Numbered from the stretch's first letter, positions 22,938-55,971 are shown. The stretch: DNA of 64,000 nucleotides from an uncultured Gammaproteobacteria bacterium (GCA_964427735.1 CAYRUS010000001.1:537373-601372); one strand, 5' to 3'. Notes: generated from the sequence alone by a model not told the origin. Made by a program: numbers and translations.

Positions 22938-23408
22938 CTACTTAGGCCTTACCACCAAGTAGCGTTCGTGGCCTTCACCTTGAGATTCTGTTTCTACTTC
23001 TTCATATTCTGAAAGTACTGTATGAACTATTCTTCTTTGATTTGGATTAAGATTATATAGTGTCTGTTCTTCTCCAGTGTCTAATGCCCTCTGGGCTGCT
23101 TGCTTTGCCAAGTCTGTGAGGTAGTCTTCCTGCTTTTCGCGCCAGTCACCAATATTAACTAAGACTCTTACCCAATCTCCGTATTCTTGGCGTACAATTA
23201 ATTGAATAATTGATTGAATCGCAAATAAACTTTCTCCTCTTTTTCCTATCAAAAGTCCTTTTTCGTTTTCAGAAGAGATCTCAACATTAACTGCATCGTT
23301 TTCTTTGTCTTCTATAACTTCTGCAGTTGCTTCTAATCCAATTAATTCCATAAGTTTATCAACTGTTTCCTGTACTAATTCTAGCTTATTTTTTTCGCTT
23401 TCTGCCAT
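22938..23408 (-). CDS. jag: Jag/KhpB-like RNA-binding protein (KH + R3H domains)
   Basis: The C-terminal NPNQRRIVHTVLSEY...HERYLVVRPK matches the R3H signature. The position next to yidC is conserved. Confidence 0.8.
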   Translation of the reverse strand: MAESEKNKLELVQETVDKLMELIGLEATAEVIEDKENDAVNVEISSENEKGLLIGKRGESLFAIQSIIQLIVRQEYGDWVRVLVNIGDWREKQEDYLTDLAKQAAQRALDTGEEQTLYNLNPNQRRIVHTVLSEYEEVETESQGEGHERYLVVRPK

Positions 23409-24228
23409 TTTTGCCTTTCTTGTCGGATTTTACCAGAGAGAACCGATTAAGGAAAGAGGTAAGCTCTCCTGGACCTGATACTCTGTATTGTTGCCATGCC
23501 TGGAATACTGAAATAACTAACCAGTACAATGCAAGAGCAGACGGAAACCTCATTCCTATAAATAAGGTAAACAAAGGAAATGTAAACATCATTGATTTTT
23601 GCATTGATGCCTGAATATCATCCATTTCACCTTTTGTTTTTTCTGCAACCTTTTCTCCTAATTCACTAGCAGGTTGCATTATTAAAGATGACGCAAGTTG
23701 AGCCAAAGCAGATAAAACAAGTAAAACTCCAGGTAAAGGAAATGGTAAACCTGATATATTTATTACATCTGGTTTTGCTAGATCAAGATATAAGAATTTT
23801 GTATTAAGTATCTCTCCGTCAGCAAATTGCAAAGCAGGGTACAAAAGATTATTAAAATTCTCCACAGGATTACCGTCTATAGATAAGGTACGAGTAAAAA
23901 CTTGAAAAAATGCAATTAATATTACTATCTGTAGTAAATAGGGTAAACACCCAGCACCTGGATTAATACCTTTCTCACGATAAAAATCAGCTTGTGCTTG
24001 TGTAAGTTTGATTTTGTCATCTTTATGCTTTTGTTTTAATTTTTCTAAATCCTTTGAATACTTTCTCATTTTCCTCATAGACTCTAAATATGGTTTAGTT
24101 AAAGGGTTTAAAAGTAAACGAAGAACTATTGTAAAAAAGATAACGGCAAGGCCTAGATTTCCTCCAAATATTCTATAAAAAAGAATTAGCCCGTTTGTTA
24201 AAGGTTCAACAAGCAAAGTTGTAAACAT
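23386..24228 (-). CDS. yidC: membrane protein insertase YidC/Oxa1 (short form)
   Basis: 280 aa. GCLPYLLQIVILIAFFQVF and the polytopic pattern are typical of short YidC. Confidence 0.85.
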   Translation of the reverse strand: MFTTLLVEPLTNGLILFYRIFGGNLGLAVIFFTIVLRLLLNPLTKPYLESMRKMRKYSKDLEKLKQKHKDDKIKLTQAQADFYREKGINPGAGCLPYLLQIVILIAFFQVFTRTLSIDGNPVENFNNLLYPALQFADGEILNTKFLYLDLAKPDVINISGLPFPLPGVLLVLSALAQLASSLIMQPASELGEKVAEKTKGEMDDIQASMQKSMMFTFPLFTLFIGMRFPSALALYWLVISVFQAWQQYRVSGPGELTSFLNRFSLVKSDKKGKNGRKRKK

Positions 24229-25232: not shown

Positions 25233-26618
25233 ATGGATAACCCTGACACTAGAAAAATCTGGAATGAAACCTTAGAAAGTATAAAAATAACAGTATCTGG
25301 AGCAATATTTTCTACTTGGTTTACCCAAACCCATTTATCATCATTGACTAAAAAGGGAGATAGATACAATGCAGAAATTGGTTGTTCCTCATCTTATGTC
25401 AGAGCTACTATAGAAAGTCGTTACTATGGACTAGTTCAAGATTCTCTTGCAAAGTCATTATCAGCTTCCTGCGACATATCTTTTACAGTAAAGGCAGATC
25501 CAAATCAAAAGCCTCCAGAGAAAAAGTCAAAAAGCGAAACTGATTCTCCTCTTTTCAATAATGAAACTGACGAAAATGTTTTAAATGAAAGACTAAAAAA
25601 CGCACATATTAGACCTGGCTTTACTTTTGAAAACTTTGCTGTTTCTGGTTCTAATCAGATGGCTTGGGCTGCAGCCGAAGCAGTGGCAGATAATCCAGGT
25701 CAAGCATATAACCCACTTTTTATTTGGGGTGGAGTTGGAGTAGGGAAAACTCACTTAATGAATGCAATTGGATACCGCTTAAGCGAAAAGACAGCTGATA
25801 CCAAACTCATTTTTTGTACGGGAGAACAATTCACAAATGATATTGTAGAAGGGATAAAAAATAAATCTACTCAAAAATTTCGAAATAAATATAGAAGAGT
25901 AGATGCACTTTTTATTGACGATATCCAGTTTATTGCAGGAAAAGACGCAGTCCAAGAAGAGTTTTTTCACACTTTTAATGCCATAGTCGCCTCAGGAGGA
26001 CAAATAGTACTTAACTCGGATCGCCCTCCCTCAGAAATAGCAAAATTAGAAGAACGTCTTAGAAGCCGCTTTGAAGCAGGATTGATAGTTGATATATCAC
26101 CACCTGACTTTGAGTTAAGATGTGCAATTATTATGATCAAGGCAGAAGAAAAGGGAATTAATCTTAATGAAGATCTAGTTAGACTAACAGCAGGAAACAT
26201 ACAAACAGCAAGACAAATAGAAGGTTTCTTGGTTAGATTAACAAGTGAAGCAAGGCTTAAAGGAGTGAATATTGATGAGGACTTGATTAAATCAATGTTT
26301 GTCAGTAACGGTGAAGTCGAGGTACCAAAAAAAATAAAGACAACACCACAAGAAATTATAAATGCTGTTTCAAAACACTATTCAATAGGCAAAAGAGCAC
26401 TTCTTGGAAAGTCACGAGCAAAACCAGTTTCATTTCCAAGACAAATTTTAATGTACTTACTTAGAATTGATTTAGGATTACCTTTGCAGGAAGTAGGAAG
26501 AATAGTAGGAGGAAGAGATCATACAACTGTGATGCATGCTGTGGATAAAGTAACGGACCTAGCCAAGGACGATGTGGAAATCCGTCAGGATATCCGGGGG
26601 ATAAAAAATATGCTTTGA
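25233..26618 (+). CDS. dnaA: chromosomal replication initiator DnaA
   Basis: Walker A GGVGVGKTHLMNAIG, the AAA+ sensor motifs and the C-terminal DNA-binding HTH (..DHTTVMHA..). Confidence 0.95.
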   Translation: MDNPDTRKIWNETLESIKITVSGAIFSTWFTQTHLSSLTKKGDRYNAEIGCSSSYVRATIESRYYGLVQDSLAKSLSASCDISFTVKADPNQKPPEKKSKSETDSPLFNNETDENVLNERLKNAHIRPGFTFENFAVSGSNQMAWAAAEAVADNPGQAYNPLFIWGGVGVGKTHLMNAIGYRLSEKTADTKLIFCTGEQFTNDIVEGIKNKSTQKFRNKYRRVDALFIDDIQFIAGKDAVQEEFFHTFNAIVASGGQIVLNSDRPPSEIAKLEERLRSRFEAGLIVDISPPDFELRCAIIMIKAEEKGINLNEDLVRLTAGNIQTARQIEGFLVRLTSEARLKGVNIDEDLIKSMFVSNGEVEVPKKIKTTPQEIINAVSKHYSIGKRALLGKSRAKPVSFPRQILMYLLRIDLGLPLQEVGRIVGGRDHTTVMHAVDKVTDLAKDDVEIRQDIRGIKNML

Positions 26619-26948: not shown

Positions 26949-28049
26949 ATGAAACTTCAGGTACTGCAAAGTAGTATGTCGAAAGTACTGCAAATAGCAG
27001 CAAGATTTGCAAGTACAAGAGCTCAATTACCAGTACTTAATAATATAAAGTTAGCTGCATATGCTAATAAAATAGAAGTATCTGCTACTAACCTTGAAAC
27101 CTCTATTAATATTACTTTAGGAGCAAAAGTTGAAGAAGAAGGAGAAATAACCATACCGGCTAAAACTATTGCCGATGTAGTTTCTAATTTAGGTGATAGA
27201 CAATTAACATTAATAGCAGAAAAGGAACAATTGAATATAAGCACAGATAATTTTTCTTCACGTATTGTTGGGATGAACACCTCAGATTTCCCGGATATTC
27301 CAAAAGAAACAGGAGAAAATCCGTTTAAAATAAATAGAGATGCATTGATAAAAGCATTGGATAAAGTTTTGTTTGCTACCTCTACAGACGAGACGAGGCC
27401 GCTTTTAACTGGAGTTTATTTTAATATTGGAACTAGTTTAACTCTAGTTGCAACTGATGGATTTCGCTTGTCTGAGAAAGTTACCGGAATAGACAATTCT
27501 AAAGAAAAAGAAGATATAATATTACCAAAAAATGTTTTGAGTGAATTAGGCAGATTGTCTTCTGGTGAAGAAACTATATTAATGAAATATGATAAAGATA
27601 ACTCTCAAGTTGTTTTTGGGGTTGGAAATATAGTTCTTGCTTCTAGAATTTTATCAGGAGAGTTTCCAGATTACAAAAAAAGAATTCCCGATAAAAGCAA
27701 AATAAGAGTGAATACAGATAAAATGGAAATAGTTAGAGCGATTAAGCTTGCTAGTGTTTTTGCTCGGGAGGGAGCCAATATTGTGAAACTTGGTGTTAAA
27801 GGGGGTAGTCTAGAGGTTTCTGCAGAGAGCAGTTCTGCAGGTAAGCAAGTCACTCAAATTGATGCTCAAGTGGAAGGGGGAGAACTTGAAATTGCATTTA
27901 ATTATAGATTTGTTGAAGAATTTCTAAATTCTATTGAGGGGGAGGATGTTTTGATTGAGTTAAATGACGCTGCTTCTCCCGGAGTGTTTAAAGACCCATC
28001 AGATAAAGATTATCTTCATTTAATCATGCCTCTGAAGCTTCAGGGTTGA
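26949..28049 (+). CDS. dnaN: DNA polymerase III beta sliding clamp
   Basis: 366 aa with three-domain clamp-like composition, immediately after dnaA. Confidence 0.9.
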   Translation: MKLQVLQSSMSKVLQIAARFASTRAQLPVLNNIKLAAYANKIEVSATNLETSINITLGAKVEEEGEITIPAKTIADVVSNLGDRQLTLIAEKEQLNISTDNFSSRIVGMNTSDFPDIPKETGENPFKINRDALIKALDKVLFATSTDETRPLLTGVYFNIGTSLTLVATDGFRLSEKVTGIDNSKEKEDIILPKNVLSELGRLSSGEETILMKYDKDNSQVVFGVGNIVLASRILSGEFPDYKKRIPDKSKIRVNTDKMEIVRAIKLASVFAREGANIVKLGVKGGSLEVSAESSSAGKQVTQIDAQVEGGELEIAFNYRFVEEFLNSIEGEDVLIELNDAASPGVFKDPSDKDYLHLIMPLKLQG

Positions 28050-29038
28050 GAGTAATCGATAGCAGGTAGATAAAATTCTGCTTGGATATTTTCACCATTG
28101 TTCATAAATGCATCACCTTTAAATAAGTAAATTGGTTGTAAATATCTTTGTTCCGAGCTTATTTCTTGCAAATAAGCAATTTCTATAGAATTCAATGTGA
28201 TTTTTCTGACTGAAGTATCAGTTACCTTTGTAGTATCAATCTTTCCATCATCAAGACTTACGATAGCTATGGTATTGATATTATCTGTTATTTGCTCAGC
28301 GCTTTTTAGTGGTCTATTTGAGCTAATCATAAATTCTGGTACTTCGTCAAAATATACTGAAACGACATCTAGTTCATTATTATATGTAATACTTATTGTT
28401 CCCGTTTCATAAGTTTCAGATATCACTTTATATCCATTAATTGACTTTGAATAAGTCAATACTATGGCTGTAGGAGGACCACTTCTTTCTATTCCCTCAA
28501 ATGGATTAATTCTTAAAGTTCGCATTTTTAGAAGGTCAATGTCATCAAGGTTGTCAATAAACCCATTTTCTACCAAATAATTTTTTGCAATTGAATCCAT
28601 TTCGCTCTGAACAGGAATCACACTCAATTCCGATGTAGGTATAACACCTGATCTATAATCAAAAATATTTTGTTTTGTAAGTACTCGTAGGCTTTTACCA
28701 CTATCGTTATAAAAATATGTAGGACCTAGGACTGGGTCTTCAACAATTTTTGGTTCAGTATTAAAACCTAAACTTAAAGTTATTTTATTTAATATATTTG
28801 ATTTAATTTCATTTTGAGTAATTTCATAAACAGGTAATGTCGAAGGGATTTGCAACCCTTCGAAGTTTATTGATATTTCAGTTTCAAACTCTCCTTGGAC
28901 TGATGTTTGTATTTCTGGCTTTGGTAAAGGCCTTTGAGGGACATTTTGTTGATTATTTCTATGTGTGAATAGAAATAGAAAACTAATCGAAATTACAAAA
29001 ATTATAATTGAAATTATTAACTTCTTTTTTATAGTCAT
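28040..29038 (-). CDS. hypothetical bitopic secreted/membrane-anchored protein (distal gene of the T4SS-like operon)
   Basis: 332 aa with an N-terminal TM (LIISIIIFVISISFLFLF) and an extracytoplasmic remainder. The start is 7 nt after the upstream gene. Confidence 0.5.
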   Translation of the reverse strand: MTIKKKLIISIIIFVISISFLFLFTHRNNQQNVPQRPLPKPEIQTSVQGEFETEISINFEGLQIPSTLPVYEITQNEIKSNILNKITLSLGFNTEPKIVEDPVLGPTYFYNDSGKSLRVLTKQNIFDYRSGVIPTSELSVIPVQSEMDSIAKNYLVENGFIDNLDDIDLLKMRTLRINPFEGIERSGPPTAIVLTYSKSINGYKVISETYETGTISITYNNELDVVSVYFDEVPEFMISSNRPLKSAEQITDNINTIAIVSLDDGKIDTTKVTDTSVRKITLNSIEIAYLQEISSEQRYLQPIYLFKGDAFMNNGENIQAEFYLPAIDYSQP

Positions 29039-29044
29039 GTCTTT

Positions 29045-32041
29045 TTATGGTATTGAAATTCCACAATTTCTAACACACTCTCTTGGTACCGTTACTGGTA
29101 CAAATGGTTGAACCATCTGTACTGGCGGGGGCCAAACTGTAGCTGGACCTCCGTTGTTATGGTCACCTAGTGCTCTAAATTCATAGTGATCATGTATATA
29201 GGTTGCTGTACCTGTATGACCCATTATACCTAAAATTGTACCTCTTGGTACAAAATCTCCCTGTTTTAGAGCAATCGAAAATGAACTAAAATGAACATGC
29301 CAGGTCATATAATCTGATCCACCACATTTTCCTGCAGTGCTAACATACAATCCCCCCCAGTTATCTACTGCTTGGTTTAATACAGTTCCATTATGAGTAG
29401 CGATTATATACGCATTATCTTGAGTTTCAGTAGTAAAAGGATCCCAGTGTACATCAATAGCTTCTCTTCTTTCGTGAGAGATAGTCCCTTCAGGACCTTG
29501 ATTAACAATATATTTTTGTCCTTCATTAGCAAGTACAGGCCATCCTACAGGGCAATCCGACGGAGGTTCTCCAATAATAATAGAAGCATATGATATTGCT
29601 TCTTCACCTTTAACTTCTTCTGTATCTGCAATTACACTAAAATTATCAGTCACAACAGAGTCTTCAAAGTTGTTATCAAAATTCACAGAATAAGAAAAAG
29701 AAAATGATTCACCATGGGTAAGAGTAGATGGTGGTTCTGGAATAGTAGGACTTGGTATTGGAGCTTTTAGTGGATCTTGTGTTATTACATATTCATTACC
29801 AAATTGAATATTCGTTAAACTACCTCTTTTGGCTGTAACTGTAATATTGTATGTGACCTCTATAGGTAGGTCACTGTTTTGTGCAATATTTATACTAGCT
29901 ACTTTTTCAATACCAATATATAAAGATTCTTTTACTATGCCGCTTGACGAACCCGCGTAAGTTAGATTTCTAGGAGAAGGGGGAATAACATAGGCTCCTG
30001 TGGTGATGATGTAGATGATAAAAGATACAACCAGTGTAAGTACGGTCAAGGCAATAAATGCTTGAATTAAAGCTTGAGCAATTTCTTTTCCAATTGCAGC
30101 TAAGCCTATAAAGAAAACCCCTGTAGCAGAGGCAATACTACCTGCTACAAAACCTCCATAAACAGCCAGTTGTCCAAAAGTATAAATAACAGCAATAGGG
30201 AGAAAAACTGTTGGTAGTAATACTACACCTGCTAGTAAACCGGCAGCTGTAGCAGCTTTATTTTTCCTCATCCATTGCAGAATTGAGCTTACTATTGGTA
30301 CTTTCTTTAAAAACTTATTTATTAATTTCACACCTTCATAGACAAGTGCGGCTGCCCAACCTATTCCGCCTGTCAATGCCCCTCCAGCAGCCTCTATTCC
30401 TAATCTTGTTGCTATGCCAGCTGCTGCTTTTTTGAATGCTGGTCCAACAATAGACGTAATCTTGCCTTTTAGAGGATTCAAATATCTGGCGATAAATCTG
30501 CTCGATACTTCACCGAATAATTGCCTTCCTAATCCTGTAAAAAAGTTTCCTCTAAATAAATCAGGATGTAAGGTTGCAGCATCGTTATTTGTTACAAATG
30601 ACCCCTCTGCTTGTGTAATTTTTTGCTCATGGACAAACCTTAAATATCTGCCTCTATATGCTGACTTAAAAATTCTGCTTAGTGCTGAATGTCTTTGCTC
30701 AATCAAACTCAAAATACTTCCGTAAGGAGCTATACTTTTAAGGTACTTATCATCTACTCCGTTTTTTCTTGCTTCAGCAATAAAAGCTGCAAGATTTTGA
30801 GGAGTAACACCTCTGGTCCATAAATGAAACGCAGATGTTTCGACAGGATTTTGTTTTGAGAATGCTAATGAACCGGCGTCAGCCAAAAATTGAAAACCTT
30901 TGGTAAAGGCAAGAGGAGCGGTTTTTCCCAGATTAAACCTAGCTGAATCTATAAATTCAAAACCTATTTGTTTTATAGCTTCCTCTTGTTCTTTTTTTAT
31001 TTTTTCTTCATCATTTTCATCTGGTACAACTTCACCAAGTAATTTACTTGCTGCTTCTTCAGCTGTATGTATTTCCTTTGCTATATTGGTATCTAATAAA
31101 GAAATACTGTCTTTGGTAAAAGTTGACGAAACGTTGAACTTAATATTAGGATCTCCTGCAATAGCTCTTGCTATGCTTGATCCGTCTCTTCCTCCTTTGA
31201 CTGTAATCCAAAATGTTCTTAATATTTTTTCTGCCAAAGTGGCAGAAGTAACTCCTCCAGAAAAAGCGATAGTATTATTTAGGTTTACACTAGCTTGTGA
31301 TAAATAACTTTGCACAAAATCGTCTTGAGAAAGGTTTGATGCATCAGAAATTAACTTGTTAATAACTGGTTCATAATCAGATCTTGGAGGAGGGAAGGGT
31401 ACTGCCATAGCAGGAACAAGATAGATTGGTGCTTCTTGAGGTTTAATTGCAGATTGTCTGCCTTCTGTTTTTTCAATAGATTCTATTAATTTTTCAGCTT
31501 CCTTTACTTGTTCACGAATTTCTTCAACTGGAATTGGTGGTTCTGCAGTAAATACAGGTTCTTTTATTTCATGACTTCTTTGCTCAGAGAGAGTTGCGAT
31601 CAATTTTGAGTTTTCTTTTAATTGGAATCTCCAATGCATAATATCGTCTGCAGAAGATCGTGTATCTTCAATTTTTCTCAGTAGCTCTATTCTTTCTTCT
31701 TCAAGTTTCAAAAGATCAGGAGGAATAGTCATTGCAGGATATTCGTCTGGTGTTTCTCCATTTATTAATTTTTCTAAATTCTCATAATATCTAAGAATTG
31801 TTTCAATCCAGACTTTTGGATCTGTATTTTTTGGAGTTTGTGTTAATACTGTTATTTCTGAAAGAAAATTAGCATAAGTAATTTGTTGCGTTTTTTCCCA
31901 GAGTTCTCTATTTTTAGGATCTTCATAAGACTCAGGTACATCTGTATAAACCCTGGTCACATCCGGGTAATAGTACTTTAGACCTTCTAAGAGTTTAAAT
32001 ATTTTGAAATATAAATTTTTGTAGTTGTTACTGGTTGCCAT
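29045..32041 (-). CDS. giant polytopic protein with an N-terminal coiled-coil region, central multi-TM region and a C-terminal M23 (LytM-type) peptidase domain
   Basis: 998 aa. TM helices lie around residues ~560-690. The C-terminus LGIMGHTGTATYIHDHYEF is the M23 G.TG.STG.HLHFE motif. It overlaps virB4 by 14 nt. Confidence 0.7.
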   Translation of the reverse strand: MATSNNYKNLYFKIFKLLEGLKYYYPDVTRVYTDVPESYEDPKNRELWEKTQQITYANFLSEITVLTQTPKNTDPKVWIETILRYYENLEKLINGETPDEYPAMTIPPDLLKLEEERIELLRKIEDTRSSADDIMHWRFQLKENSKLIATLSEQRSHEIKEPVFTAEPPIPVEEIREQVKEAEKLIESIEKTEGRQSAIKPQEAPIYLVPAMAVPFPPPRSDYEPVINKLISDASNLSQDDFVQSYLSQASVNLNNTIAFSGGVTSATLAEKILRTFWITVKGGRDGSSIARAIAGDPNIKFNVSSTFTKDSISLLDTNIAKEIHTAEEAASKLLGEVVPDENDEEKIKKEQEEAIKQIGFEFIDSARFNLGKTAPLAFTKGFQFLADAGSLAFSKQNPVETSAFHLWTRGVTPQNLAAFIAEARKNGVDDKYLKSIAPYGSILSLIEQRHSALSRIFKSAYRGRYLRFVHEQKITQAEGSFVTNNDAATLHPDLFRGNFFTGLGRQLFGEVSSRFIARYLNPLKGKITSIVGPAFKKAAAGIATRLGIEAAGGALTGGIGWAAALVYEGVKLINKFLKKVPIVSSILQWMRKNKAATAAGLLAGVVLLPTVFLPIAVIYTFGQLAVYGGFVAGSIASATGVFFIGLAAIGKEIAQALIQAFIALTVLTLVVSFIIYIITTGAYVIPPSPRNLTYAGSSSGIVKESLYIGIEKVASINIAQNSDLPIEVTYNITVTAKRGSLTNIQFGNEYVITQDPLKAPIPSPTIPEPPSTLTHGESFSFSYSVNFDNNFEDSVVTDNFSVIADTEEVKGEEAISYASIIIGEPPSDCPVGWPVLANEGQKYIVNQGPEGTISHERREAIDVHWDPFTTETQDNAYIIATHNGTVLNQAVDNWGGLYVSTAGKCGGSDYMTWHVHFSSFSIALKQGDFVPRGTILGIMGHTGTATYIHDHYEFRALGDHNNGGPATVWPPPVQMVQPFVPVTVPRECVRNCGISIP

Positions 32042-34457
32042 TTTGGTCGGTATTTAATAAAGCATTAATTTGATTTTGTAAGTCAGTTTCTTTTTGTTCT
32101 GGTGTTTTGTTTGGATTATTAGCTTGTCCAGGCAGAATCACCTCGTTTGTGCCTTGTTTTGGAGGCTGATTAAAAGCAGTTGCCTGCACAATACTCTCTT
32201 TGTTTATTGTATCTTGTATTGGGCTTTCTTTACCTTGATGTTTTTCCGGAGGTTCATTAGTGTTTGTTTGACTAACTGCAACAGTCTCTTGACCTCTGAC
32301 TCCTGTTTCCTCACCGTTGTCATTTGATTGGGTAGTTTGGCTATTTGGGGTTGGCGATTGATCGCTTTCTATTTCCATAAAAGCAGGTTTGATAAGTTCT
32401 TCGTTTTGTTGAGGTTGGTTTGTTTTATTATTGTCACCTATGTAACTAGGTTTTTCATTTCTTTTAGACATTTCACTCGGATTAGTTGTAATAAGTTCGT
32501 GCTCTACATCGCTTGCTACAATCCTAATAGGAGCATGGTGTGGACCTGCGAAAAATATTCCCTCTCCAACGTTTGCTGCAAGAAGCAATTGCTTTTCTCC
32601 TTGTGACAGATAAAAGATTTCGGCAATCCGATCAATTGCAGCAGGAGACTGCTTGAGCAAGAGTTTAAGAGAGGAATTAGTAACAATGGCTTTACCTATG
32701 TCCTGAGACAGAAAATCCTCCACATCCTGTGTAATAGTGGTCAATCCCAGCCAATACTTTCTAGCTCTTTTGACAACAGACCACAGAAATTGAGCAGAAT
32801 CTTCATATCGCATCATATGCCAAGCTTCATCAACAATTAACATTCGTTTTTTAAGGTCCCTTTGGACTCTTGTCCAGATAAAGTCAAGAATAACAAACAT
32901 GGCGATAGGTCTTAGTGCTTCTTGCATATCTTTTACACTAAAAACTGTAAACGGGTTAGAAAGGTCTATATTTGTATGTTTGTCAAATATTCCTACAAAA
33001 GATCCTTTGACAAACTTTTCAATTCTGGCTGCTAAATCTTGTGCTTCAGCAGTTTCCATACCAATCAAGGTTTTGTATAAATCTTCCATCAAAGGTGGTT
33101 CCTTTTTTTGAGTTTCAGGGTCTTGAGTAATTCCTTTTGACTTGTATGTAGCGATTAGCGCTCTATCGAGTAAAGCTTCTTGGGTTGGTGATAGTTGTCC
33201 CATGATAACTTTAAATAATGAGTGGAGAGATAAAATCTTTAAACCTAATTGATTTTCTCCTTCAACATAAACTTGAGATAAATCAAAAGGATTAATTTTT
33301 GATTCAGATGAAAATGAGAAAGAAATATATTCTCCACCTACTGAGTCTGAAAGGTCTTTATACTCAGCTTCGGGGTCAATAATTATAACTTCAGTTCCAA
33401 GCATCAGAGATCTTACTGATTCTAGTTTTACAAAATAGCTTTTACCTCCTCCGGATGTACCAAACACACTCATGTTCGAGTTTTCCATGCTATATCTGTC
33501 AAAAATTATAAAAGAGTCGTTTTGTGGATTTATTCCATAAAGTACACCTTTGTCATTTGACAATTCTGCTGTTGTAAATGGGAAAGTTGTAGCAAGTGAT
33601 GTTGTGTCCATATTTCTATTAACATAGAGTTTGTCTTGCCCCCAAGGGACTGTTGTAATAAATCCTCTTTCCTGATCAAGGGTTATGCTTTCTGCATCAA
33701 CAAGCAAGGATTGCAAAGTCGATTGCACTTGTTTTGTAATATGATTTAGCTCTTCGGGAGAATGGGCAGGAATAGTTATGTAAAGACCCATTTCAAAAAA
33801 ACCCTCTATTCCTTTTACAAGTTGCTCTTGAAGAGCTAATGCGTCTTCTAATTTTGCTTTGGTGGTTGGATTAACTATTTTACCTCTATCAATATCTGTT
33901 GATAATTCGGCTTCCATTTCTGTTATTTTTCTTCTCAAATCATCCAAAACTGTTTTGCCTTCAACAGGATAAATATAAAAAGATGTATTTAAAGAATGGT
34001 TAAAATTTATTAATGGCTCTAACCAGCCTGGATTAACAAAGCGTCTTCGAATATTTGTATAGAGTGTTCGATAGTATTTTTCATTTAATTTTACGTGATC
34101 AAAATCAGTCTCAAATTTTTGAGGAGCAATTACATCCAGAAGATGCATACCTTCTTTAATAGAAAGGATTGGTTTTATTACTTTAGGCTTTTCGTATTCT
34201 TTTATAGTTACTTTTTCCTCACTGTCTTGGGTAAATGCGTGCCTTACAGGTTCTGGAATTATTTTAGATAGAAGTCCTTTTTTTTCTAATTCCAAGTTTT
34301 GGGTGTTTTGTGTTGGTTGAAATTGACCCACCGGTTTGTTTACAGTTTGTCCTTGAAGTTGCGGTATATTTTCTGTTGTCTGTGGAATATTTGGCAGTAT
34401 AACTCCTTGGTTTGAACTCTGAATATTTTTATTTTTTTTGAATAGTGGTAAATCCAT
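32028..34457 (-). CDS. virB4: VirB4/TraE/PrgJ-family type IV secretion ATPase (central + ATPase domains) with an N-terminal Q/N/P-rich linker and a ~150-aa disordered Q/N-rich C-terminal extension
   Basis: Walker A VFGTSGGGKSYF and Walker B MLIVDEAWHMM. The central-domain pattern KYYRTLYT..PGWLEPLINF.. is VirB4-like. Confidence 0.85.
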   Translation of the reverse strand: MDLPLFKKNKNIQSSNQGVILPNIPQTTENIPQLQGQTVNKPVGQFQPTQNTQNLELEKKGLLSKIIPEPVRHAFTQDSEEKVTIKEYEKPKVIKPILSIKEGMHLLDVIAPQKFETDFDHVKLNEKYYRTLYTNIRRRFVNPGWLEPLINFNHSLNTSFYIYPVEGKTVLDDLRRKITEMEAELSTDIDRGKIVNPTTKAKLEDALALQEQLVKGIEGFFEMGLYITIPAHSPEELNHITKQVQSTLQSLLVDAESITLDQERGFITTVPWGQDKLYVNRNMDTTSLATTFPFTTAELSNDKGVLYGINPQNDSFIIFDRYSMENSNMSVFGTSGGGKSYFVKLESVRSLMLGTEVIIIDPEAEYKDLSDSVGGEYISFSFSSESKINPFDLSQVYVEGENQLGLKILSLHSLFKVIMGQLSPTQEALLDRALIATYKSKGITQDPETQKKEPPLMEDLYKTLIGMETAEAQDLAARIEKFVKGSFVGIFDKHTNIDLSNPFTVFSVKDMQEALRPIAMFVILDFIWTRVQRDLKKRMLIVDEAWHMMRYEDSAQFLWSVVKRARKYWLGLTTITQDVEDFLSQDIGKAIVTNSSLKLLLKQSPAAIDRIAEIFYLSQGEKQLLLAANVGEGIFFAGPHHAPIRIVASDVEHELITTNPSEMSKRNEKPSYIGDNNKTNQPQQNEELIKPAFMEIESDQSPTPNSQTTQSNDNGEETGVRGQETVAVSQTNTNEPPEKHQGKESPIQDTINKESIVQATAFNQPPKQGTNEVILPGQANNPNKTPEQKETDLQNQINALLNTDQNGNQ

Positions 34458-34458
34458 G

Positions 34459-35127
34459 TTAGTTTTCTATTTCTAAATCTGGTTCAGGGTCTTTTAAATC
34501 TTTTTGATTGTAAATTGTATGATATATTTCAATAAGCTCGTTGGTAGTAAGTTGTCTTAACTTAATACCTAATCTTCCGACTTGTCTTGACAAGTGATCT
34601 CTCCTAGGGTAGAGAACAAGCTCTGCTTTTTTAAGAATATATGATTTGCTAAACGGTAATGGTCCTTTTTTAGTTTTAAAGGTTACGAGAGATTTAGAAA
34701 TACCAAGTTCAAGAGGTGAAAAAGGAATTACAATATAAAAGCGCTTTTCAAGGACATTCTTTTTCTTTATTGTTTCTGAAATAAATTTTTTGTATCCCTC
34801 CATCATTTTGGATAGTTTTGGATTTTCTATTTTTTGATGAGCTTCATCCAGAAATTGCATGTAGTTTGCAATATTTTTTTGTTTTGATCTAACTGTAATT
34901 TGAATTGAGAAAGATAAAGAATTCAAAAGAGCAGAGTAGGCAGCAATCACTGCTTCTTGTTCTTTTTCGCTCAAAAGACCAAAGTTTAAAGCAGTTGATT
35001 CTAGCACAATTGCGGCTCCACCATTTTTAAACAAAACTATGTCTTTAGTAATATCTGCTATGGGCAAGTGATCTTGTGTACTTGCCATCAGTGGTTTATC
35101 TGGGAGGGTTATAAATGGTATTTTCAT
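34459..35127 (-). CDS. VirB4 N-terminal domain-like protein (separate ORF immediately upstream of virB4)
   Basis: 222 aa. DITKDIVLFKNGGAAIVLESTALNFGLLSEKEQEAVIAAYSALLNSLSFSIQITVRSK...KRFYIVIPFSP follows the N-terminal pattern of Gram-positive VirB4 homologues (..ILEV.PINF.L.S..EQ......F...L......IQ......). Its stop is 1 nt before the virB4 ATG in a different frame. Confidence 0.5.
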   Translation of the reverse strand: MKIPFITLPDKPLMASTQDHLPIADITKDIVLFKNGGAAIVLESTALNFGLLSEKEQEAVIAAYSALLNSLSFSIQITVRSKQKNIANYMQFLDEAHQKIENPKLSKMMEGYKKFISETIKKKNVLEKRFYIVIPFSPLELGISKSLVTFKTKKGPLPFSKSYILKKAELVLYPRRDHLSRQVGRLGIKLRQLTTNELIEIYHTIYNQKDLKDPEPDLEIEN

Positions 35128-35131
35128 AATA

Positions 35132-36109
35132 TTAATTTTTAGCTACCTCTTTTGCTCTTATTGCTATTGGTTGAATAATTGACCCGTCTGCTTCAAAGTT
35201 AATGTCATCAAAAACAAATCCAATCTTTTCTGTTGAAATTGTGTACTTGCCGTTATTAAGTGAAGTTACAATTATAAAATGACCAAGTTGATTGCTTTTA
35301 AGTGCTCTAACTGGTCTTCCTTGTTCATCTTTGATTTCTAGAATTGCTCCTTCAATAATCCCACCGTCTGGCTTCATTACTTGCCCAACAATAGTATTCG
35401 GTCTTTCAGGGGGAACAGGAGGTGCAGCCTCTGGTGAAAATTCAGCTTTTTGAACATCCTTCTTTCCCTCACTTTTGATTGTAGGTTCTATAGGGACGCT
35501 AGGAATTTCTGTTTTAACAGTCTTTTCGATAACAATTGGTGGTGTTTGATTTAATATTCTTGGTTTAATCTCTTGTGGCGTTTTAAGAACTGGTTCATTT
35601 TCAGGAATATTAATTATTTTATTTTTTTCTGCTTCAGGTTGAGTTGCTGAAATTGGTTGAGTGCCGTGCAAAAGCTGTGATATTTGTGATAAAAATGCTT
35701 GTTCGCCTGATTCCAAATTTGAGAGAAAAGAAGGACTGTGAGGTTTTGCAGGTTGAGAATCTTGTTTTTGTTCTTTTTGGGCTGTGGTTACATCATCCTG
35801 TACAAAAAAGACAGGGGCTTTTTCGTATTTTGTCCAGACAAATTCAGTGGGAGAATAAATAGTTCTAAAAAAAGCTACTATCCACGCAGAAAGAGGTCTT
35901 TCTTTAAACGGTAAAAACGCCAGAGCTATGCCAAGGAGGGCAAAAAAGATAATAAATGGCCATTTAATAAAAGCAGGTAAACCGCTTGCATAAAAAAGCA
36001 AAGCAACGAGAAATCCTCCGGCCAGCTGGAAAAACTGCTTTAAGGTCATGTCTCCTACAAGCCTGAACTGGTAAGAGCTTATTTGTTGTGGTACTGGATG
36101 TTGATTCAT
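35132..36109 (-). CDS. VirB3/PrgI-like two-TM membrane protein fused to a Pro-rich linker and a C-terminal carboxypeptidase-regulatory-like beta-sandwich domain
   Basis: 325 aa. The N-terminal TM hairpin (LAGGFLVALLFYASGLPAFIKWPFIIFFALLGIALAFLPF) sits directly upstream of virB4, as PrgI/VirB3 genes do. The C-terminus GQVMKPDGGIIEGAILEIKDEQGRPVRALKSNQLGHFII..NGKYTI fits a prealbumin-like fold. Confidence 0.45.
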   Translation of the reverse strand: MNQHPVPQQISSYQFRLVGDMTLKQFFQLAGGFLVALLFYASGLPAFIKWPFIIFFALLGIALAFLPFKERPLSAWIVAFFRTIYSPTEFVWTKYEKAPVFFVQDDVTTAQKEQKQDSQPAKPHSPSFLSNLESGEQAFLSQISQLLHGTQPISATQPEAEKNKIINIPENEPVLKTPQEIKPRILNQTPPIVIEKTVKTEIPSVPIEPTIKSEGKKDVQKAEFSPEAAPPVPPERPNTIVGQVMKPDGGIIEGAILEIKDEQGRPVRALKSNQLGHFIIVTSLNNGKYTISTEKIGFVFDDINFEADGSIIQPIAIRAKEVAKN

Positions 36110-36169
36110 AAATTTAATTCATAAGGCACAATGCACAATACATATTGATACAGTTTATAATGCATACAT

Positions 36170-36544
36170 CTACTTTTCTTCTAAACTTTTTACCATTGTT
36201 GTTAAGAGTTTTTTGCACTCATTATTTCTTTGGACAAAATCGTTTAGTATATCATCTTTTGTTAGTTCAAGCATAATTTCTAGCCAATATTCAACTTCGA
36301 AACTTGAACCTCTCGATATACTCAAAAACTGACGATAACTCTTGGAATAATACCTGCCGTAACCTTCTACTATGTTTGCTCCAACGGAACAACTGGATCT
36401 TATTAGCTGATCGACTATAAAATTGTATGTATAGGGATACTTTTTTTCTGAGAAGTATTTTATAAGATCAATAGACAGGCTATTTGCCTTTTTATATACA
36501 GTTATATTTTTATAACTTGAATGACTTTTTTGGACAGGATTCAT
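36170..36544 (-). CDS. four-helix-bundle protein (23S rRNA intervening-sequence protein family)
   Basis: 124 aa. SVGANIVEGYGRYYSKSYRQFLSISRGSSFEVEYWLEI matches the family signature (aNIaEG.gR.s...f..fl.ia.GS..E). Confidence 0.7.
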   Translation of the reverse strand: MNPVQKSHSSYKNITVYKKANSLSIDLIKYFSEKKYPYTYNFIVDQLIRSSCSVGANIVEGYGRYYSKSYRQFLSISRGSSFEVEYWLEIMLELTKDDILNDFVQRNNECKKLLTTMVKSLEEK

Positions 36545-36809
36545 CTTTATATGTTTTATGCGATATGCATTATGGCATAGTCTATCTTTAGGCTACAGCG
36601 TGAAGCCGTTTTTTCAAGTTTTATCTTTTTCACAAATTAATAAATGATGCTTGTTTCTTAGATTCTTAATAATTTAAACTAGGATAGTATGGTTAGCTCA
36701 AAAAAACACCCCATAGCTGATAAGTTTTGCTTAATTTGATATAATACAACCAATGCCCGACGAAGCTAGAGAAATTTCAAGTCAATCCTTACGTGGCGGA
36801 GGAAGCAAT

Positions 36810-39134
36810 ATGAGAAAAGAAGTTACAAACAAAATTTTCATTAGTAACAGACGAAGAACAAAGGAACATGTAGTTACACCTCTTGATTCTACAATTCCTA
36901 AATTTAAAGATTTGAGAATAGAAGCGGAGAGACTTGCTGCTGATCCTGATCTGGATGCCGGTAAAGAATTCGAATTCAAAACAAGAAAAGCAAGGCTTAT
37001 GAGAGAGGTAAACGATGCAGGTTTTCTTAGACCGTTCCAAGAAACCATTCGAATGAAAATAAGTAACTCGACTACATATAGGGAAGCTCAGGAAACAATT
37101 AGAAAACTTAACACACAAGAGATTGAAAAGAGTATTGCTGGTGATCCAAATTCTCACTGGAAAGCAAACTTTGAAGGAATCTTTGCTGCATACAAAGAAC
37201 ATGTACTTGAAAGAATGGAAACTGAGTATCAAAAAGCAAATGGAACAGTTAATGAAGATATAGCTGAAAAAGTTGAAAAGGAAGGTGATTTAATGGGCTG
37301 GAGTGTTCCTCTTCTAGAAATCAAAGACATAATAGAAAAAGAGAAACTTAGTAACACAAGAAGTTTTAATGATGTTCAAAAAGAACTCCGTACATTAGCA
37401 CAAAACCCAGACAGACAAAAAGAGAGAGACCTAAGGGCAGAAAGAGATACACTAATCGCATGGGCAAAAAAAGTCGGATTATTTGACCAACTTAAAGACG
37501 TGATGTATAGGACTCAACTAGAAAACCAAGACTATAACCAGGCTTATAAAGAAATTGCAAAAATAGATATAGACAGATTAGAAAATAGTCTATTTAATAC
37601 ACTTGATGGTTTAGATGAAAAAGTGCCGGATGAACATCCTTTAAGAGGCATATTAGATGAATATAGGGACGTTGCCCTTTTAAACATGAAGGCTGCTTGG
37701 CTTGAAGGATTGATTACAGAAAACGTTGGAGATATTGCAGATCACAGGCGTAGGTTAATAAATCTTAGAAGACAGATAGATTTACGTGGCTGGGGAATTC
37801 CACCTACAAATCTCGAAGGTAAAGCTATTGGAACTATAAGGGATAAAATAGAGAAAAGAAGACAACAAAGACAACATCAGTCACGACCAAACCAGCCACA
37901 GGCAAATCTTCCAAGGCCTGAAGACTATGGTAAAGCGGTCGCTGATGCATTGGGAGCACCTACACCTGAGAAACAAAGAAGAAACTTTTTAGAGATAGAA
38001 AGAAACGGACGTGGAGAAGTTCAAATTCCTTCTCTGGATCACAATACATGGGAAGGATTGAGTAGGCAAGAACGAGACTTTTGGTTGGAACGTTTGAGAT
38101 TATCTAATGCTAGAGCTAAGAAACAAAATACTTATAAAGCTGTAGAATTTTTCCCAAATCCTTATATGCAGGAATTTACCAAAGAAGGTCTCAACACTGT
38201 AACTAATCATAAAGGAGTACCGGAAGCAACAGCGTCTTACCTAGCACTTTTTACTGATAAAAATTTTTACAATAGGTATAAAGAAAGAATGGGAATGACC
38301 GCTATGCACCCATCGGAAGAAGGTGCTGACCAGAGGTCATTGGAGTTATTTCGAAGACAATTTGAAGTATATTTAAGAACAAGGTTAGGTTTAAACCAAA
38401 AAGAAGCCTTAGATGCCGAACAAGTAGCTTACAACTTCGTATATATGACAAACGAACTAGAAGCTAAAAAAGTAAAAAGTGGTCTTAAGAATTTTGTTGA
38501 TTTTAAAACATCAGAGCTAATGCACATGAAGGCTAAAGTAATCGAAAGTGTTGTAAAGTCAGATGACAAAAAGGCTAAGGCATGGCCTTCGGGAACACTT
38601 TTTGGAGAATGGGCATACAGACGCAGAAAGGATATAAAAAGAAATCCAGATATTGTTCCATTGCCTGATCAGTTATTTCCTAGTCTTTTACAAGAAGGAG
38701 TTTTAGAAAACAATCCACTTGTAGGTTTAGATCAAAAAGGAAGAGATTTTATTAGTGGAAAAATTAATAGAGTACCTAGATTAGACTGGAATAGAGTTGA
38801 GGAGTATCCGTTTAATGGACCATATTATCTAAACAGGATCAATCAAGCCCAAATTGTTTATGCTGTTTTCTCATTTGGTCAATTACCAGATAATGTTACT
38901 CCATCAAATTTTGCCGATGTTTATTCTAGTTTAATAAGTACTGGTGCTAGTAAAAAGATAGCAAAGGAAACGATAGAGTCAATGATCGGCTTAATTCACA
39001 ACAAGGAACAAAATTGGATACACGCAAACAATTATAGATTTAAACCGTTATTAGATCCGTTTTCTAAAATTGGTTATATAAACTGGATGAGGAAAAACTA
39101 TCCTTCTATTTATTCAATAATCTTCTATAACTAA
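36810..39134 (+). CDS. large soluble hypothetical protein (no TM, no signal peptide) inside the T4SS-like locus
   Basis: The track ORF starts at 36753. The ATG at 36810 is preferred because GGAGGA lies 7 nt upstream. The product is ~774 aa, charged/helical, with no catalytic motif recognised. Confidence 0.5.
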   Translation: MRKEVTNKIFISNRRRTKEHVVTPLDSTIPKFKDLRIEAERLAADPDLDAGKEFEFKTRKARLMREVNDAGFLRPFQETIRMKISNSTTYREAQETIRKLNTQEIEKSIAGDPNSHWKANFEGIFAAYKEHVLERMETEYQKANGTVNEDIAEKVEKEGDLMGWSVPLLEIKDIIEKEKLSNTRSFNDVQKELRTLAQNPDRQKERDLRAERDTLIAWAKKVGLFDQLKDVMYRTQLENQDYNQAYKEIAKIDIDRLENSLFNTLDGLDEKVPDEHPLRGILDEYRDVALLNMKAAWLEGLITENVGDIADHRRRLINLRRQIDLRGWGIPPTNLEGKAIGTIRDKIEKRRQQRQHQSRPNQPQANLPRPEDYGKAVADALGAPTPEKQRRNFLEIERNGRGEVQIPSLDHNTWEGLSRQERDFWLERLRLSNARAKKQNTYKAVEFFPNPYMQEFTKEGLNTVTNHKGVPEATASYLALFTDKNFYNRYKERMGMTAMHPSEEGADQRSLELFRRQFEVYLRTRLGLNQKEALDAEQVAYNFVYMTNELEAKKVKSGLKNFVDFKTSELMHMKAKVIESVVKSDDKKAKAWPSGTLFGEWAYRRRKDIKRNPDIVPLPDQLFPSLLQEGVLENNPLVGLDQKGRDFISGKINRVPRLDWNRVEEYPFNGPYYLNRINQAQIVYAVFSFGQLPDNVTPSNFADVYSSLISTGASKKIAKETIESMIGLIHNKEQNWIHANNYRFKPLLDPFSKIGYINWMRKNYPSIYSIIFYN

Positions 39135-39141: not shown

Positions 39142-40809
39142 CTATCTTATATATCTAATAGTTCTTAACAGATTTCCTAACCAGTGAGGACCAAATCTCT
39201 CCATTCTGCTTACTCCAAGTGAAGTTGCTCCTCTGGTTAAAGTATCAGCAGGACCTACTGCTTGTCCTATGGCAGCCCCATAATTGAAAGACTGACCGCT
39301 TATGATAGCTTTAACTAATTCATTCGACCTATGAATTATTAAAAATATTACAAGTGATACAATAAAGAATAGCAAGGCAATACCAGTTTCTCCTTCGGAG
39401 TATAAGAGAGGAGGCCACCCCGGAACAAAGTCTTGTCCTGTAAAAACATTGGTTAATGGTACTCCAAAAATAAAAGCTCCAATAGGATCTACTCCCGCCG
39501 AGCCAATTGCTAATTTTGCATACTGTGCAGACATTCCAAGAAAAATGAAGGATAATACAAAAAGGAATCCTGTTACCACAAACACAGCTAAATTAGAAGA
39601 ATACTGTTTTACCCAGTTACCAAAACCAAGACTAGGAATTACAACACCAAGGGTAATCAAAAAAGGAGCAAAAATTGTCAACAATACAATGGTTGCATAT
39701 GCTTTAGCTAGACCCCATACAATCTTTACTAAATAAATTACTATTACAGCCATTATAATAAGTAAGAAAACAAGACCAATAATGAGTGCTATTGCTGTTG
39801 TTGGTGCAGCACTGGCAGCAGCTATAACTAAAAGAGTAGCGACAGCTGTAGCCAATGCTGCTCCTATTGCTCCAAAAAAAACTATTACCAACAGTAGTCC
39901 TACAAAAGTTGCTAATACTAGGAATATTATTATTAGACCAAAAATGCCAGAATGAAATGTGGGATTGCTTGAACTACCAAAACCAGGGCCTTGTGTCATC
40001 ACTTCAAACAAATATGCTGGATTGGATTGGTTACCTGAAAAAGATCTTACAAAGCTACTTAATAGTAAGCTCAGTAGACCTATAACTACATACATGAGAT
40101 CTATCAAAAGACCTGCTATAGCATAGGAAAAGGTGACGAGTATCAGTGCAATAAATATTTTAGGAAGTGCGGACTGAATACTTACCACAGTTTGAGGAGA
40201 AATTTTAATTCTAAACATAATCATAAAGGCAAAGATAATTATAATAATAACGAATAGGACATAAGAAAGATCGCGAGAAGCTTTCCATAAAGTCTGTATA
40301 GGGTCTAGTGCTGTTTTGTATCCAAAACCTTCCTGTGCATTAGCCTCTGGTATTATTGAAAATTTATTTATAGTTTTATCCAGATATGATAATGCTGATA
40401 AGCTTCTGTTAGTGTTAAAAACACTTGCAACTAAAGATTTATCCGATTGCAAATTTGTGAAAGGTTCTTGAGATGGAGCTTGTGCCAGCTTTAAACAATT
40501 TCCTACATCACTAGAGGAAATACATCTCATAACATCAGCTCCCAAGACTTGGGCAAAAGGCCAGCCAATAACGCTCCAGATTATCCAATTTACTTGAGCA
40601 TATGTATACCTCTCCCCAAAAATTTCACCTGAAGGATCGTCAAAAACTTTAGAATAAAATTGATCGGGATGTTGGTTATACCAAGGCTGAAGAGCATATG
40701 AAGATTTTGGTACGTAAACTGCAAGGGAGGTAAAAAGATAGAGTGCAATAAGTACGGATAGTGCTAGTTTTTTCAGGACAGTCATTTTAATCAGTTTAGT
40801 TAATTTCAT
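39142..40809 (-). CDS. VirB6/TrbL-like polytopic membrane protein
   Basis: 555 aa. It has a signal/TM segment, a ~150-aa extracytoplasmic N-domain, then at least 8 hydrophobic helices rich in small residues (AAASAAPTTAIALIIGLVFLLIIMAVIVIYL...). This architecture is typical of VirB6/TcpH. Confidence 0.55.
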   Translation of the reverse strand: MKLTKLIKMTVLKKLALSVLIALYLFTSLAVYVPKSSYALQPWYNQHPDQFYSKVFDDPSGEIFGERYTYAQVNWIIWSVIGWPFAQVLGADVMRCISSSDVGNCLKLAQAPSQEPFTNLQSDKSLVASVFNTNRSLSALSYLDKTINKFSIIPEANAQEGFGYKTALDPIQTLWKASRDLSYVLFVIIIIIFAFMIMFRIKISPQTVVSIQSALPKIFIALILVTFSYAIAGLLIDLMYVVIGLLSLLLSSFVRSFSGNQSNPAYLFEVMTQGPGFGSSSNPTFHSGIFGLIIIFLVLATFVGLLLVIVFFGAIGAALATAVATLLVIAAASAAPTTAIALIIGLVFLLIIMAVIVIYLVKIVWGLAKAYATIVLLTIFAPFLITLGVVIPSLGFGNWVKQYSSNLAVFVVTGFLFVLSFIFLGMSAQYAKLAIGSAGVDPIGAFIFGVPLTNVFTGQDFVPGWPPLLYSEGETGIALLFFIVSLVIFLIIHRSNELVKAIISGQSFNYGAAIGQAVGPADTLTRGATSLGVSRMERFGPHWLGNLLRTIRYIR

Positions 40810-53902: not shown

Positions 53903-54274
53903 GGGGACGCATTAGGTTTCGACGAGATGGCTCTTTTAAAGATTGCAAGCAGACGGATGTCAGTATACGTCTTTAATCACACTGGCAAACACAAAAAGCG
54001 TCACTAAAAATAGCGCTCCTAAATACGCTGTAGCTTACGCGTAAAAAGGTGTCTTGTTGATTACGTTTTCCGACCGAATCATCAGGGCATAAACCTAGTC
54101 GGAACGCACACAAGTCTTGGTGAGCTTTGCAAGCTTGTGCTAAGAATTTTAAAGCTTGTCTTTTCTCGTCCTTCCGATGGGTAAGAGTAAAGCACTACAA
54201 AATATCGGATAAGCTTGTAGAAATCTTTATTGAGAAAATTTCGGACGAGGGTTCGACTCCCTCCGTCTCCACCA
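53903..54274 (+). ncRNA. ssrA: tmRNA (ssrA), standard one-piece
   Basis: It starts GGGGACGCATTAGGTTTCGACG and ends ...GGACGAGGGTTCGACTCCCTCCGTCTCCACCA (tRNA-Ala-like acceptor/T-arm with encoded CCA). The candidate tag reading frame is GCA AAC ACA AAA AGC GTC ACT AAA AAT AGC GCT CCT AAA TAC GCT GTA GCT TAC GCG TAA, giving (A)NTKSVTKNSAPKYAVAYA*. Boundaries are +/- 2 nt. Confidence 0.85.
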
Positions 54275-54324
54275 ATAATAAAAGCCCTTTTAAAAGGGCT
54301 TTTTTAGTTTGATAAACTGAATTA

Positions 54325-55005: not shown

Positions 55006-55010
55006 AAATG

Positions 55011-55098: not shown

Positions 55099-55154
55099 TA
55101 AAAACACAATTTTGAATATATATAAAAGTACAGTTGTATATCGCCTGAAAATAA

Positions 55155-55241: not shown

Positions 55242-55315
55242 AAAACTGGATCTATTATACCAAATTAGCTTGATTATCGAAATCTCAATATCTTTGACTA
55301 ATTTACCTGATTATT

Positions 55316-55915: not shown

Positions 55916-55971
55916 ATAGCCTCGATATTTAAACACAGAAAAGGTATAATTAGCCAAGATTTTGATGTAAT

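Follow-up and report, generated by a model that had tools for sequence, protein, structure and literature searches.

A chromosomal type IV secretion gene cluster, probably of Patescibacterial type, in which VirB4 is encoded by two adjacent genes

The window analysed here is a stretch of 64,000 nucleotides (nt) from assembly GCA_964427735.1 (CAYRUS010000001.1:537373-601372, listed under an uncultured Gammaproteobacteria bacterium), and our subject is its gene for VirB4, the motor ATPase of type IV secretion systems (T4SS). We found that VirB4 is encoded there by two adjacent open reading frames (ORFs), ORF1, which encodes a TrsD-like protein of 222 amino acids (aa), and ORF2, which encodes the ATPase part of 809 aa. 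The reading that we favour, with a probability of roughly 0.88, is that the window carries the chromosomal T4SS cluster of a Patescibacterium of the Microgenomates/Woesebacteria type, in which VirB4 is made as two polypeptides that re-form one motor. The two-gene arrangement of TrsD and VirB4 has already been published, and the window is an ordinary member of this known system. Beyond the literature, the present analysis adds the complementary profile coordinates of the two products, a break point in common with the staphylococcal plasmid pSK41, recurrent fusion or fission in the linker, a possible triple fusion of VirB3, TrsD and VirB4, and, in about 10% of the relatives, putative inteins in the VirB4 Walker A motif.

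Two reading frames for one VirB4

The two reading frames and their parts are as follows.

34459..35127, minus strand: ORF1, TrsD-like protein, 222 aa, the VirB4 N-terminal domain's first ~180-200 residues as a detached protein
34455..34461, minus strand: junction TAA-C-ATG (ORF1 stop 34461-34459, C 34458, ORF2 ATG 34457-34455)
32028..34457, minus strand: ORF2, VirB4 ATPase, 809 aa, reading through unbroken
34432..34439, minus strand: A8 homopolymer (T8 on the plus strand), codons 6-9 of ORF2
34158..34457, minus strand: ORF2 aa 1-100, N-terminal motif MDLPLFKK and then a disordered leader, Q/N/P/T-rich and afterwards K/E-rich
32478..34157, minus strand: ORF2 aa 101-660, VirB4 core, with the second half of the N-terminal domain (~101-320) and the C-terminal P-loop ATPase (~323-657)
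32028..32477, minus strand: ORF2 aa 661-809 and stop, low-complexity C-terminal tail (45% Q, N, P and T), overlapping the start of the next gene by 14 nt

The sequence of the split junction, within 34440-34475, is GAAAACTAACATGG. The initial annotation, which was made from the sequence of the window, described a UAA-C-AUG junction between the 222-aa and 809-aa ORFs with a +1 frame relation, and a T8 homopolymer in the early codons of the second; both descriptions are exact in their coordinates. A mismatch of 1 nt that it reported from its own codon mapping at 34380-34460 does not exist, and ORF2 is continuous from 34457 to 32028. The ORF2 frame is closed upstream by a TAG at 34469-34467, and the open overlap of both frames amounts to 2 codons only. 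Junctions in which a stop and a start are 1 nt apart are frequent in operons and alone have little meaning; the weight of the TAA-C-ATG junction comes from the conservation of the split in relatives. As for the other end of ORF1, gene callers put its start at Met14, giving a 209-aa product (P0001; 35089-35127 region). Since residues 2-13 (KIPxxxxPDxPL) are conserved or invariant among relatives, translation likely begins farther upstream, at the ATG at 35127.

ORF2 belongs to the VirB4 family. It passes the curated cutoff of the NCBIfam CD1110 VirB4-like profile (NF045971; 390.4 bits, cutoff 325, E 1.6e-116) and matches the Mbov_0397 VirB4 profile and Pfam P-loop_TraG (PF19044; E 6e-31, 107.9 bits against a cutoff of 25.8), and its aa 323-657 match the VirB4 C-terminal domain of PDB entry 4ag5 (E 3.2e-46). 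Its RecA-like domain contains Walker A (GTSGGGKS, aa 333-340) and Walker B (MLIVDE, at approximately aa 539-544) motifs, located from the sequence and an alignment with TraE of pSK41. These matches agree with the earlier statement that the 809-aa ORF continues into the central and ATPase domains of VirB4. However, a complete N-terminal domain was not found on the ORF2 polypeptide, and the profile positions that it lacks are covered by ORF1.

The start of ORF2 had been described as an ~80-aa Q/N/P-rich segment. The low complexity is there; the Q/N/P-rich part is shorter, about 55-60 aa (Q, N, P and T make up 48% of aa 1-60), and is followed by K/E-rich sequence to about aa 100. A second Q/N/P/T-rich stretch, of about 150 aa at aa 661-809, had gone without mention. 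Among the relatives described below, the leader of the ATPase gene ranges from 7 to ~100 aa, and most of the ATPase ORFs are of 585-680 codons (stop to stop) and have no C-terminal tail. The leader of ORF2 appears to be a remnant of the inter-domain linker. Q/N/P/S/T-rich segments recur on T4SS proteins, as the leader and tail of ORF2 here and as C-terminal tails of ~150-500 aa on other TrsD-like proteins of Patescibacteria, and such segments may be linker remnants or cell-envelope spacers.

ORF1 stands directly upstream of this N-terminally shortened gene, across the 1-nt gap, and corresponds in sequence comparison to the first ~180-200 residues of canonical VirB4. Profiles, fused relatives collinear with it, and TrwK, the VirB4 of plasmid R388, as the top structural match together relate it to the N-terminal portion of VirB4. 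The matches of ORF1 to the N-terminal parts of the Mbov_0397 and CD1110 profiles are weak. On the NCBIfam TrsD/TraD profile (NF041427) it scores 28.6 bits (E 1.1e-6, positions 14-142 of 201) and does not reach the cutoff of 200, compared with 227.6 bits for TrsD of pSK41; by the criterion of NCBI, ORF1 is thus a remote TrsD relative and not a member of the family. An hhalign comparison of the ORF1 family with pSK41 TrsD aligned 180 columns (23-217 with 31-217 of 227; E 5.9e-5) with a probability of only 65%. PF26593 (TraC-like) is present in the precomputed annotations of most ORF1 homologues, graded 'weak' or 'faint', and was not matched by hmmscan of ORF1 and three homologues against a local Pfam-A at E <= 10, from which the model may be missing. 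A phmmer search of ORF1 against PDB sequences gave no match, and TrwK was recovered by fold comparison alone: the top structural matches of the predicted ORF1 model are TrwK/VirB4 chains. Of the earlier proposal that the 222-aa ORF is the VirB4 N-terminal domain, the homology therefore stands; the ORF covers roughly the first half of the domain only, and the protein already bears the name TrsD/TraD in the literature. Because the N-terminal domain of TrwK comprises residues 15-400, the break lies inside the N-terminal domain after about its first half, and not at the boundary between this domain and the ATPase domain.

The two products are complementary on both VirB4 profiles (Mbov_0397, ORF1 at 103-280 and ORF2 at 277-893 of 894; CD1110, ORF1 at 26-119 and ORF2 at 182-734 of 752), and thus ORF1 followed by ORF2 is collinear with single-chain VirB4.

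Conservation of the split and fused relatives

A search with ORF1 gave 1484 homologues at E <= 1e-3, and the best 120 of these, without exception, stand alone as proteins of 208-267 aa and come from Patescibacteria, namely Woesebacteria, the Microgenomates group and unclassified Patescibacteria-group genomes. We located the TrsD-like and ATPase reading frames in 80 related genome loci (Microgenomates/Woesebacteria). The two genes are separate in 75 of the 80 and fused in five. Their junctions are varied: an ATGA overlap in 25 loci, TAATG in five, a 1-nt gap in five including the window, and spacings between -26 and +72 nt in the remainder, each of the three frame relations being represented, with in-frame gaps of 3, 6, 9 or 12 nt in about eight loci. 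Since no frame relation is kept among the relatives, a conserved recoding mechanism is ruled out. The start of the ATPase gene, on the other hand, is recognizable, with a homologous ATG in L009 (TAG-T-ATG, MDVPGFLKK), L011 (TAA-A-ATG, MDVPSFLKK) and L007 (TGA-TT-ATG, MDLPDFLKS), and therefore MDLPLFKK in the window marks a conserved initiation site. Three contigs encode an identical 809-aa protein, and 8.6 kb of the window, with junction and A8 run, are reproduced at 100% identity by Logan's assembly of run SRR7082976. Taken together, these comparisons indicate that the split is ancient, widespread and accurately sequenced.

The A8 run lies 16 nt downstream of the junction and is incidental. 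It is not kept in the relatives, 17 further A8/T8 runs occur inside the window, and both of its flanks share one frame, which is the frame that agrees with the conserved features. Phase variation at this run was considered and rejected for the first and last of these reasons.

The five fused loci are L006 (865 codons stop to stop), L047 (915), L079 (873), L082 (834) and L084 (1589). When ORF1 and ORF2 were joined and compared with the L006 protein, BLASTP returned one alignment (1-914 with 1-836), and the same was observed for L047 and L079; the L006 protein itself matches TIGR00929 VirB4_CagE over positions 7-724 in a single stretch. The domain order of the concatenated 222 and 809 aa is therefore that of natural one-ORF relatives and of single-chain VirB4 profiles. 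In L047 and L079 the linker contains GLPDFLK or GLPEFLK, which corresponds to the beginning of the ATPase gene in split loci. In a neighbour-joining tree of the ATPase cores, fused forms appear in at least three separate places, and the outgroups from Bacillota and archaea are split; the tree is a rough one, made from BLOSUM62 distances without support values, and serves only to show that the fused forms are not one clade. These results suggest repeated fusion, or fission, in the disordered linker, with at least three such events among the 80 genomes.

A profile search over 1.84 billion cluster representatives found 2508 relatives of the ORF1 family. Among the best 150 representatives (50% identity), fusion to an ATPase domain was demonstrated for one, P0149 (787 aa). 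Scanning of nine other long ones (374-715 aa) found no ATPase domain, and the rest of the 150 were classed as unfused by length alone. Five long sequences were read: four (P0126, P0139, P0158 and P0183) consist of a TrsD domain with a long Q/N/P/S/T-rich tail, and the fifth is the fused P0149. Since TrsD-like proteins also carry such tails, the linker seems able to stay on either side of the break.

L084 (LCOA01000014.1, Candidatus Amesbacteria bacterium GW2011_GWA1_47_20, 4233-8987) has a single ORF, 1584 aa from the first ATG, that joins PrgI/VirB3-like, CarboxypepD_reg-like, TrsD-like and VirB4 domains and an intein, with PrgI above its Pfam cutoff (32.4 bits). VirB3 is fused to VirB4 in some other systems, and for the dataset of a 2025 survey of Patescibacteria no such fusions were reported (PMC12102498). 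Unless the assembly is at fault there, L084 may thus be a triple fusion not yet on record. As a Rosetta-stone case, fusing all three proteins, it supports a complex of PrgI, TrsD and VirB4.

About eight of the 80 relatives (~10%: L008, L034, L038, L039, L070, L073, L081 and L084) have ATPase ORFs of 1175-1589 codons, the seven split loci among them having ~1175-1270 codons. The extra length is accounted for by ~590 aa that are inserted immediately behind the Walker A GxGKS and end with VHNS. The insertion was confirmed with Pfam as an intein with LAGLIDADG endonuclease in L084 only and read by eye in L008; for the other long ORFs we infer inteins from the gap between two BLAST matches. The VirB4 of the window has no intein.

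Alternative explanations

Several points weigh against the reading that one VirB4 is made here as two polypeptides. The profile matches of ORF1 to VirB4 and TrsD families are weak (E 1e-5 to 2e-7) and far under the curated cutoffs, and scanning with Pfam gave no domain for ORF1 or for three homologues, even with E <= 10 allowed. In the window genome the ORF2 ATG has no Shine-Dalgarno sequence before it, whereas GAGGA is found there in many relatives, and efficient translation of ORF2 is assumed. Furthermore, a one-base deletion in TAAC gives an in-frame fusion (...ENYMDLP...), fused relatives exist, and on sequence alone a 1-nt insertion at the junction, real or artefactual, may have occurred. 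The low scores bear on whether ORF1 is the missing piece of ORF2 at all, or instead an accessory T4SS protein in its own right, with a separate function and, as a module of paralogous or analogous origin, only a resemblance to the VirB4 N-terminus. The literature is cautious here ('remote homology', 'no function assigned'; PMC12102498), TrsD homologues of Gracilibacteria lie away from virB4 (PMC12102498), and many TrsD-like proteins bear long tails of their own. However, the profile positions missing from ORF2 are exactly those covered by ORF1, without overlap or duplication, the natural fused proteins are collinear with ORF1 and ORF2 and match VirB4_CagE from position 7, and the top matches of the ORF1 structure model are VirB4 itself. 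We consider an accessory protein improbable.

The initial annotation had named three possible origins of the arrangement: a genuinely split and translationally coupled VirB4, a programmed +1 event, and an indel or assembly error. In the last case one fused virB4 would exist in reality and a spurious base would have been introduced near TAAC, as the in-frame product of a one-base deletion, the five fused relatives and the nearby A8 run could imply. The independent Logan assembly, however, has the identical junction and A8 run, the junction is outside any long homopolymer, and the A8 run has on either side sequence in the single frame that agrees with conserved features. In addition, the many long intact ORFs of the window (998, 934, 814, 809 and 793 aa) show that the assembly is not indel-prone, and among the 75 split relatives L007, L009 and L011 share the homologous ATG with other stops and spacers; a sequencing or assembly error is thus very improbable. 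Programmed +1 frameshifting at the end of ORF1, which would yield a full-length VirB4, possibly beside the separate products, is superficially suggested by the likeness to prfB, as ORF2 is in the +1 frame and a stop is right at the junction. The TAG at 34469-34467, however, limits a shift to the last two sense codons, GAA AAC, where re-pairing of the P-site codon AAC on ACU would be needed, a slip expected to be unfavourable from known +1 sites, and an upstream Shine-Dalgarno stimulator is not present. ORF2 also has its own ATG with a conserved N-terminal motif after it, and the frame relation varies in relatives (-4, -1, +1, +2, in-frame 3/6/9/12, up to +72 nt), so that the shift site and frame relation, by which a prfB-type mechanism is recognized, are not conserved among the 80 loci. 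We give this possibility hardly any credence. There remains the split VirB4, supported by the 75 split relatives, the complementary profiles, the single alignment with fused relatives and the TrwK/VirB4 structural matches; translational coupling of its two genes is probable from the 1-nt spacing.

Gene cluster, known systems and proposed function

The genes around the split VirB4 are as follows.

35132..36109, minus strand: membrane protein, PrgI/VirB3-like, 325 aa, whose gene opens the cluster and has its stop 4 nt before the ORF1 ATG
29045..32041, minus strand: 998-aa protein with hydrophobic, probably transmembrane, segments and a C-terminal M23 peptidase (Pfam Peptidase_M23, E 1.7e-9)
28040..29038, minus strand: 332-aa protein, last co-directional gene, 6 nt after the M23 gene
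26949-28049, plus strand: dnaN (Pfam DNA_pol3_beta)
25233-26618, plus strand: dnaA (Pfam Bac_DnaA)
23386-24228: yidC, near dnaA/dnaN
22938-23408: KH/R3H (Jag-like) gene, near dnaA/dnaN

Five co-directional genes, for the PrgI/VirB3-like, TrsD-like, VirB4, M23 and 332-aa proteins, follow one another with gaps of 4, 1, -14 and 6 nt, and because of this tight packing they most likely form one operon. A promoter and terminator scan of 27900-36900 found fewer promoter-like sites than in shuffled sequences and no convincing internal signal between ORF1 and ORF2. The PrgI-like protein has N-terminal PrgI-like transmembrane helices, a low-complexity middle and a C-terminal CarboxypepD_reg-like domain (Pfam: PrgI, E 6.7e-5 and 23.8 bits, below the cutoff of 27; CarboxypepD_reg, E 2.7e-5), and a PrgI-like gene also precedes the TrsD-like gene in L001. 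The M23 protein is probably the cell-wall hydrolase of the system, analogous to VirB1. The 332-aa protein has no Pfam match. No VirB6/TrbL-like gene and no relaxase were seen among the Pfam-scanned neighbours, and a search of the immediate cluster that was not thorough yielded neither a VirB6-like nor a VirB2-like gene. The window spans a probable replication origin, since dnaA and dnaN adjoin the T4SS cluster; the same neighbourhood is found in L001.

Quinonero-Coronel et al. (2025, Microb Genom) identified 2,272 TrsD homologues in Patescibacteria, of which 1,664 are associated with virB4, and described TrsD as a remote homologue of the VirB4 N-terminus with 'no function assigned' (PMC12102498). 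In their survey the T4SS cluster of Microgenomatia is often near dnaA/dnaN, the TrsD homologues of Gracilibacteria are not beside virB4, and the homologue of TrsD in Ca. S. epibionticum is given as essential (PMC12102498); for functional work in Ca. Southlakia epibionticum that paper cites Wang et al. 2023. The word TrsD is not used in the main text of the NAR 2014 paper cited for TrsD homology. The window cluster has the set and order of genes of the Patescibacteria T4SS (PrgI/VirB3-like, TrsD-like, VirB4 and cell-wall hydrolase; PMC12102498), is likewise chromosomal and beside dnaA/dnaN with no relaxase seen, and has its closest ORF1 homologues among Woesebacteria/Microgenomates proteins. 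Nothing essential differs; the ~100-aa leader and ~150-aa tail of the window ATPase are absent from most relatives.

A similar arrangement is found in the pGO1/pSK41 plasmids (MPF-FATA, pGO1 subclass), in which a small protein of ~220 aa directly precedes a VirB4-like ATPase of ~670 aa; in Staphylococcus pSK41 these are the annotated trsD (227 aa) and the VirB4-like traE (672 aa). The alignment of ORF2 with TraE (27% identity, E 2e-47) starts by pairing residue 107 of the former with residue 35 of the latter, and the break point in the window is therefore the same as in pSK41. The similarity between TrsD and ORF1 is, however, very remote, as the hhalign and NCBIfam results given above indicate. 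Moreover, the window cluster is chromosomal, whereas pSK41 is a conjugative plasmid that has both a relaxase and a coupling protein, and the hydrolase of pSK41 has a CHAP domain in place of the M23 peptidase. A tblastn search of plasmids with ORF1 matched 114 records; in Geobacillus pGS18, a Pontibacillus megaplasmid and an archaeal (Natrinema) plasmid, a small 'hypothetical protein' directly precedes a DUF87/VirB4-like ATPase of 617-657 aa, followed in pGS18 and the Pontibacillus plasmid by an M23 peptidase gene. Canonical single-chain VirB4 proteins (TrwK of R388, PrgJ of pCF10, the CD1110/Tn916 type and the Mbov_0397 type) have the same domain order once ORF1 and ORF2 are joined, and the ATPase domain of TrwK and of PDB 4ag5 matches that of ORF2. 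They are uninterrupted, whereas the window polypeptide is broken after approximately the first half of the N-terminal domain.

Further features were observed in the window. A gene of the 23S rRNA-intervening sequence protein family (124 aa, 36170-36544, minus strand, Pfam E 1.6e-21) lies directly upstream of the PrgI-like gene, and this position is filled likewise in the Logan contig. Beyond it are a 793-aa ORF (36753-39134, plus strand) and a 555-aa ORF (39142-40809, minus strand) without Pfam match, and an 814-aa ORF (41406-43850, minus strand) with a weak SLT_3 lysozyme-like match (E 1.5e-4), whose product could be a further cell-wall-active component. The region 53903-58042 contains a tmRNA gene (53903-54274, tag VTKNSAPKYAVAYA) and then five tRNA genes, four for tRNA-Ser and one for tRNA-Arg.

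As for the function of the split VirB4, ORF2 would probably be translated by ribosomes that stop at the TAA of ORF1 and reinitiate 1 nt farther on, at the ORF2 ATG. By analogy with R388, the TrsD-like piece may then re-associate non-covalently with the ATPase subunit, which would rebuild the canonical hexameric VirB4 motor. In R388, VirB3 is wrapped about VirB4's N-terminal domain (TrwK residues 15-400; PMC9259494). Analogy with TrwM-TrwK of that plasmid thus suggests that the TrsD-like piece provides a binding surface that would link the ATPase to the PrgI/VirB3-like membrane protein. It is also conceivable, though in our view unlikely, that the split is functional and not neutral, making TrsD a separate VirB3-binding subunit. 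In such a case only a subset of VirB4 protomers might be loaded onto PrgI/VirB3, comparable to the 'central' and 'outside' VirB4 subunits of R388, and assembly of the motor could be regulated through TrsD levels. The recurrent fusions or fissions and the triple fusion of PrgI, TrsD and VirB4 would then be different solutions of stoichiometry.

For annotation, both genes of a VirB4 made as two polypeptides should be regarded as real, a TrsD-like VirB4 N-terminal subunit and a VirB4 ATPase, and not as a pseudogene or a frameshift. The published 'remote homology' of TrsD is thereby sharpened, in that TrsD is the detached first half of the VirB4 N-terminal domain, complementing what is absent from the ATPase gene. 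It seems to have been fused back several times in Microgenomates, once, perhaps, together with PrgI/VirB3. A complex of PrgI, TrsD and VirB4 is thus predicted in a secretion system on which the epibiotic life of Patescibacteria depends.

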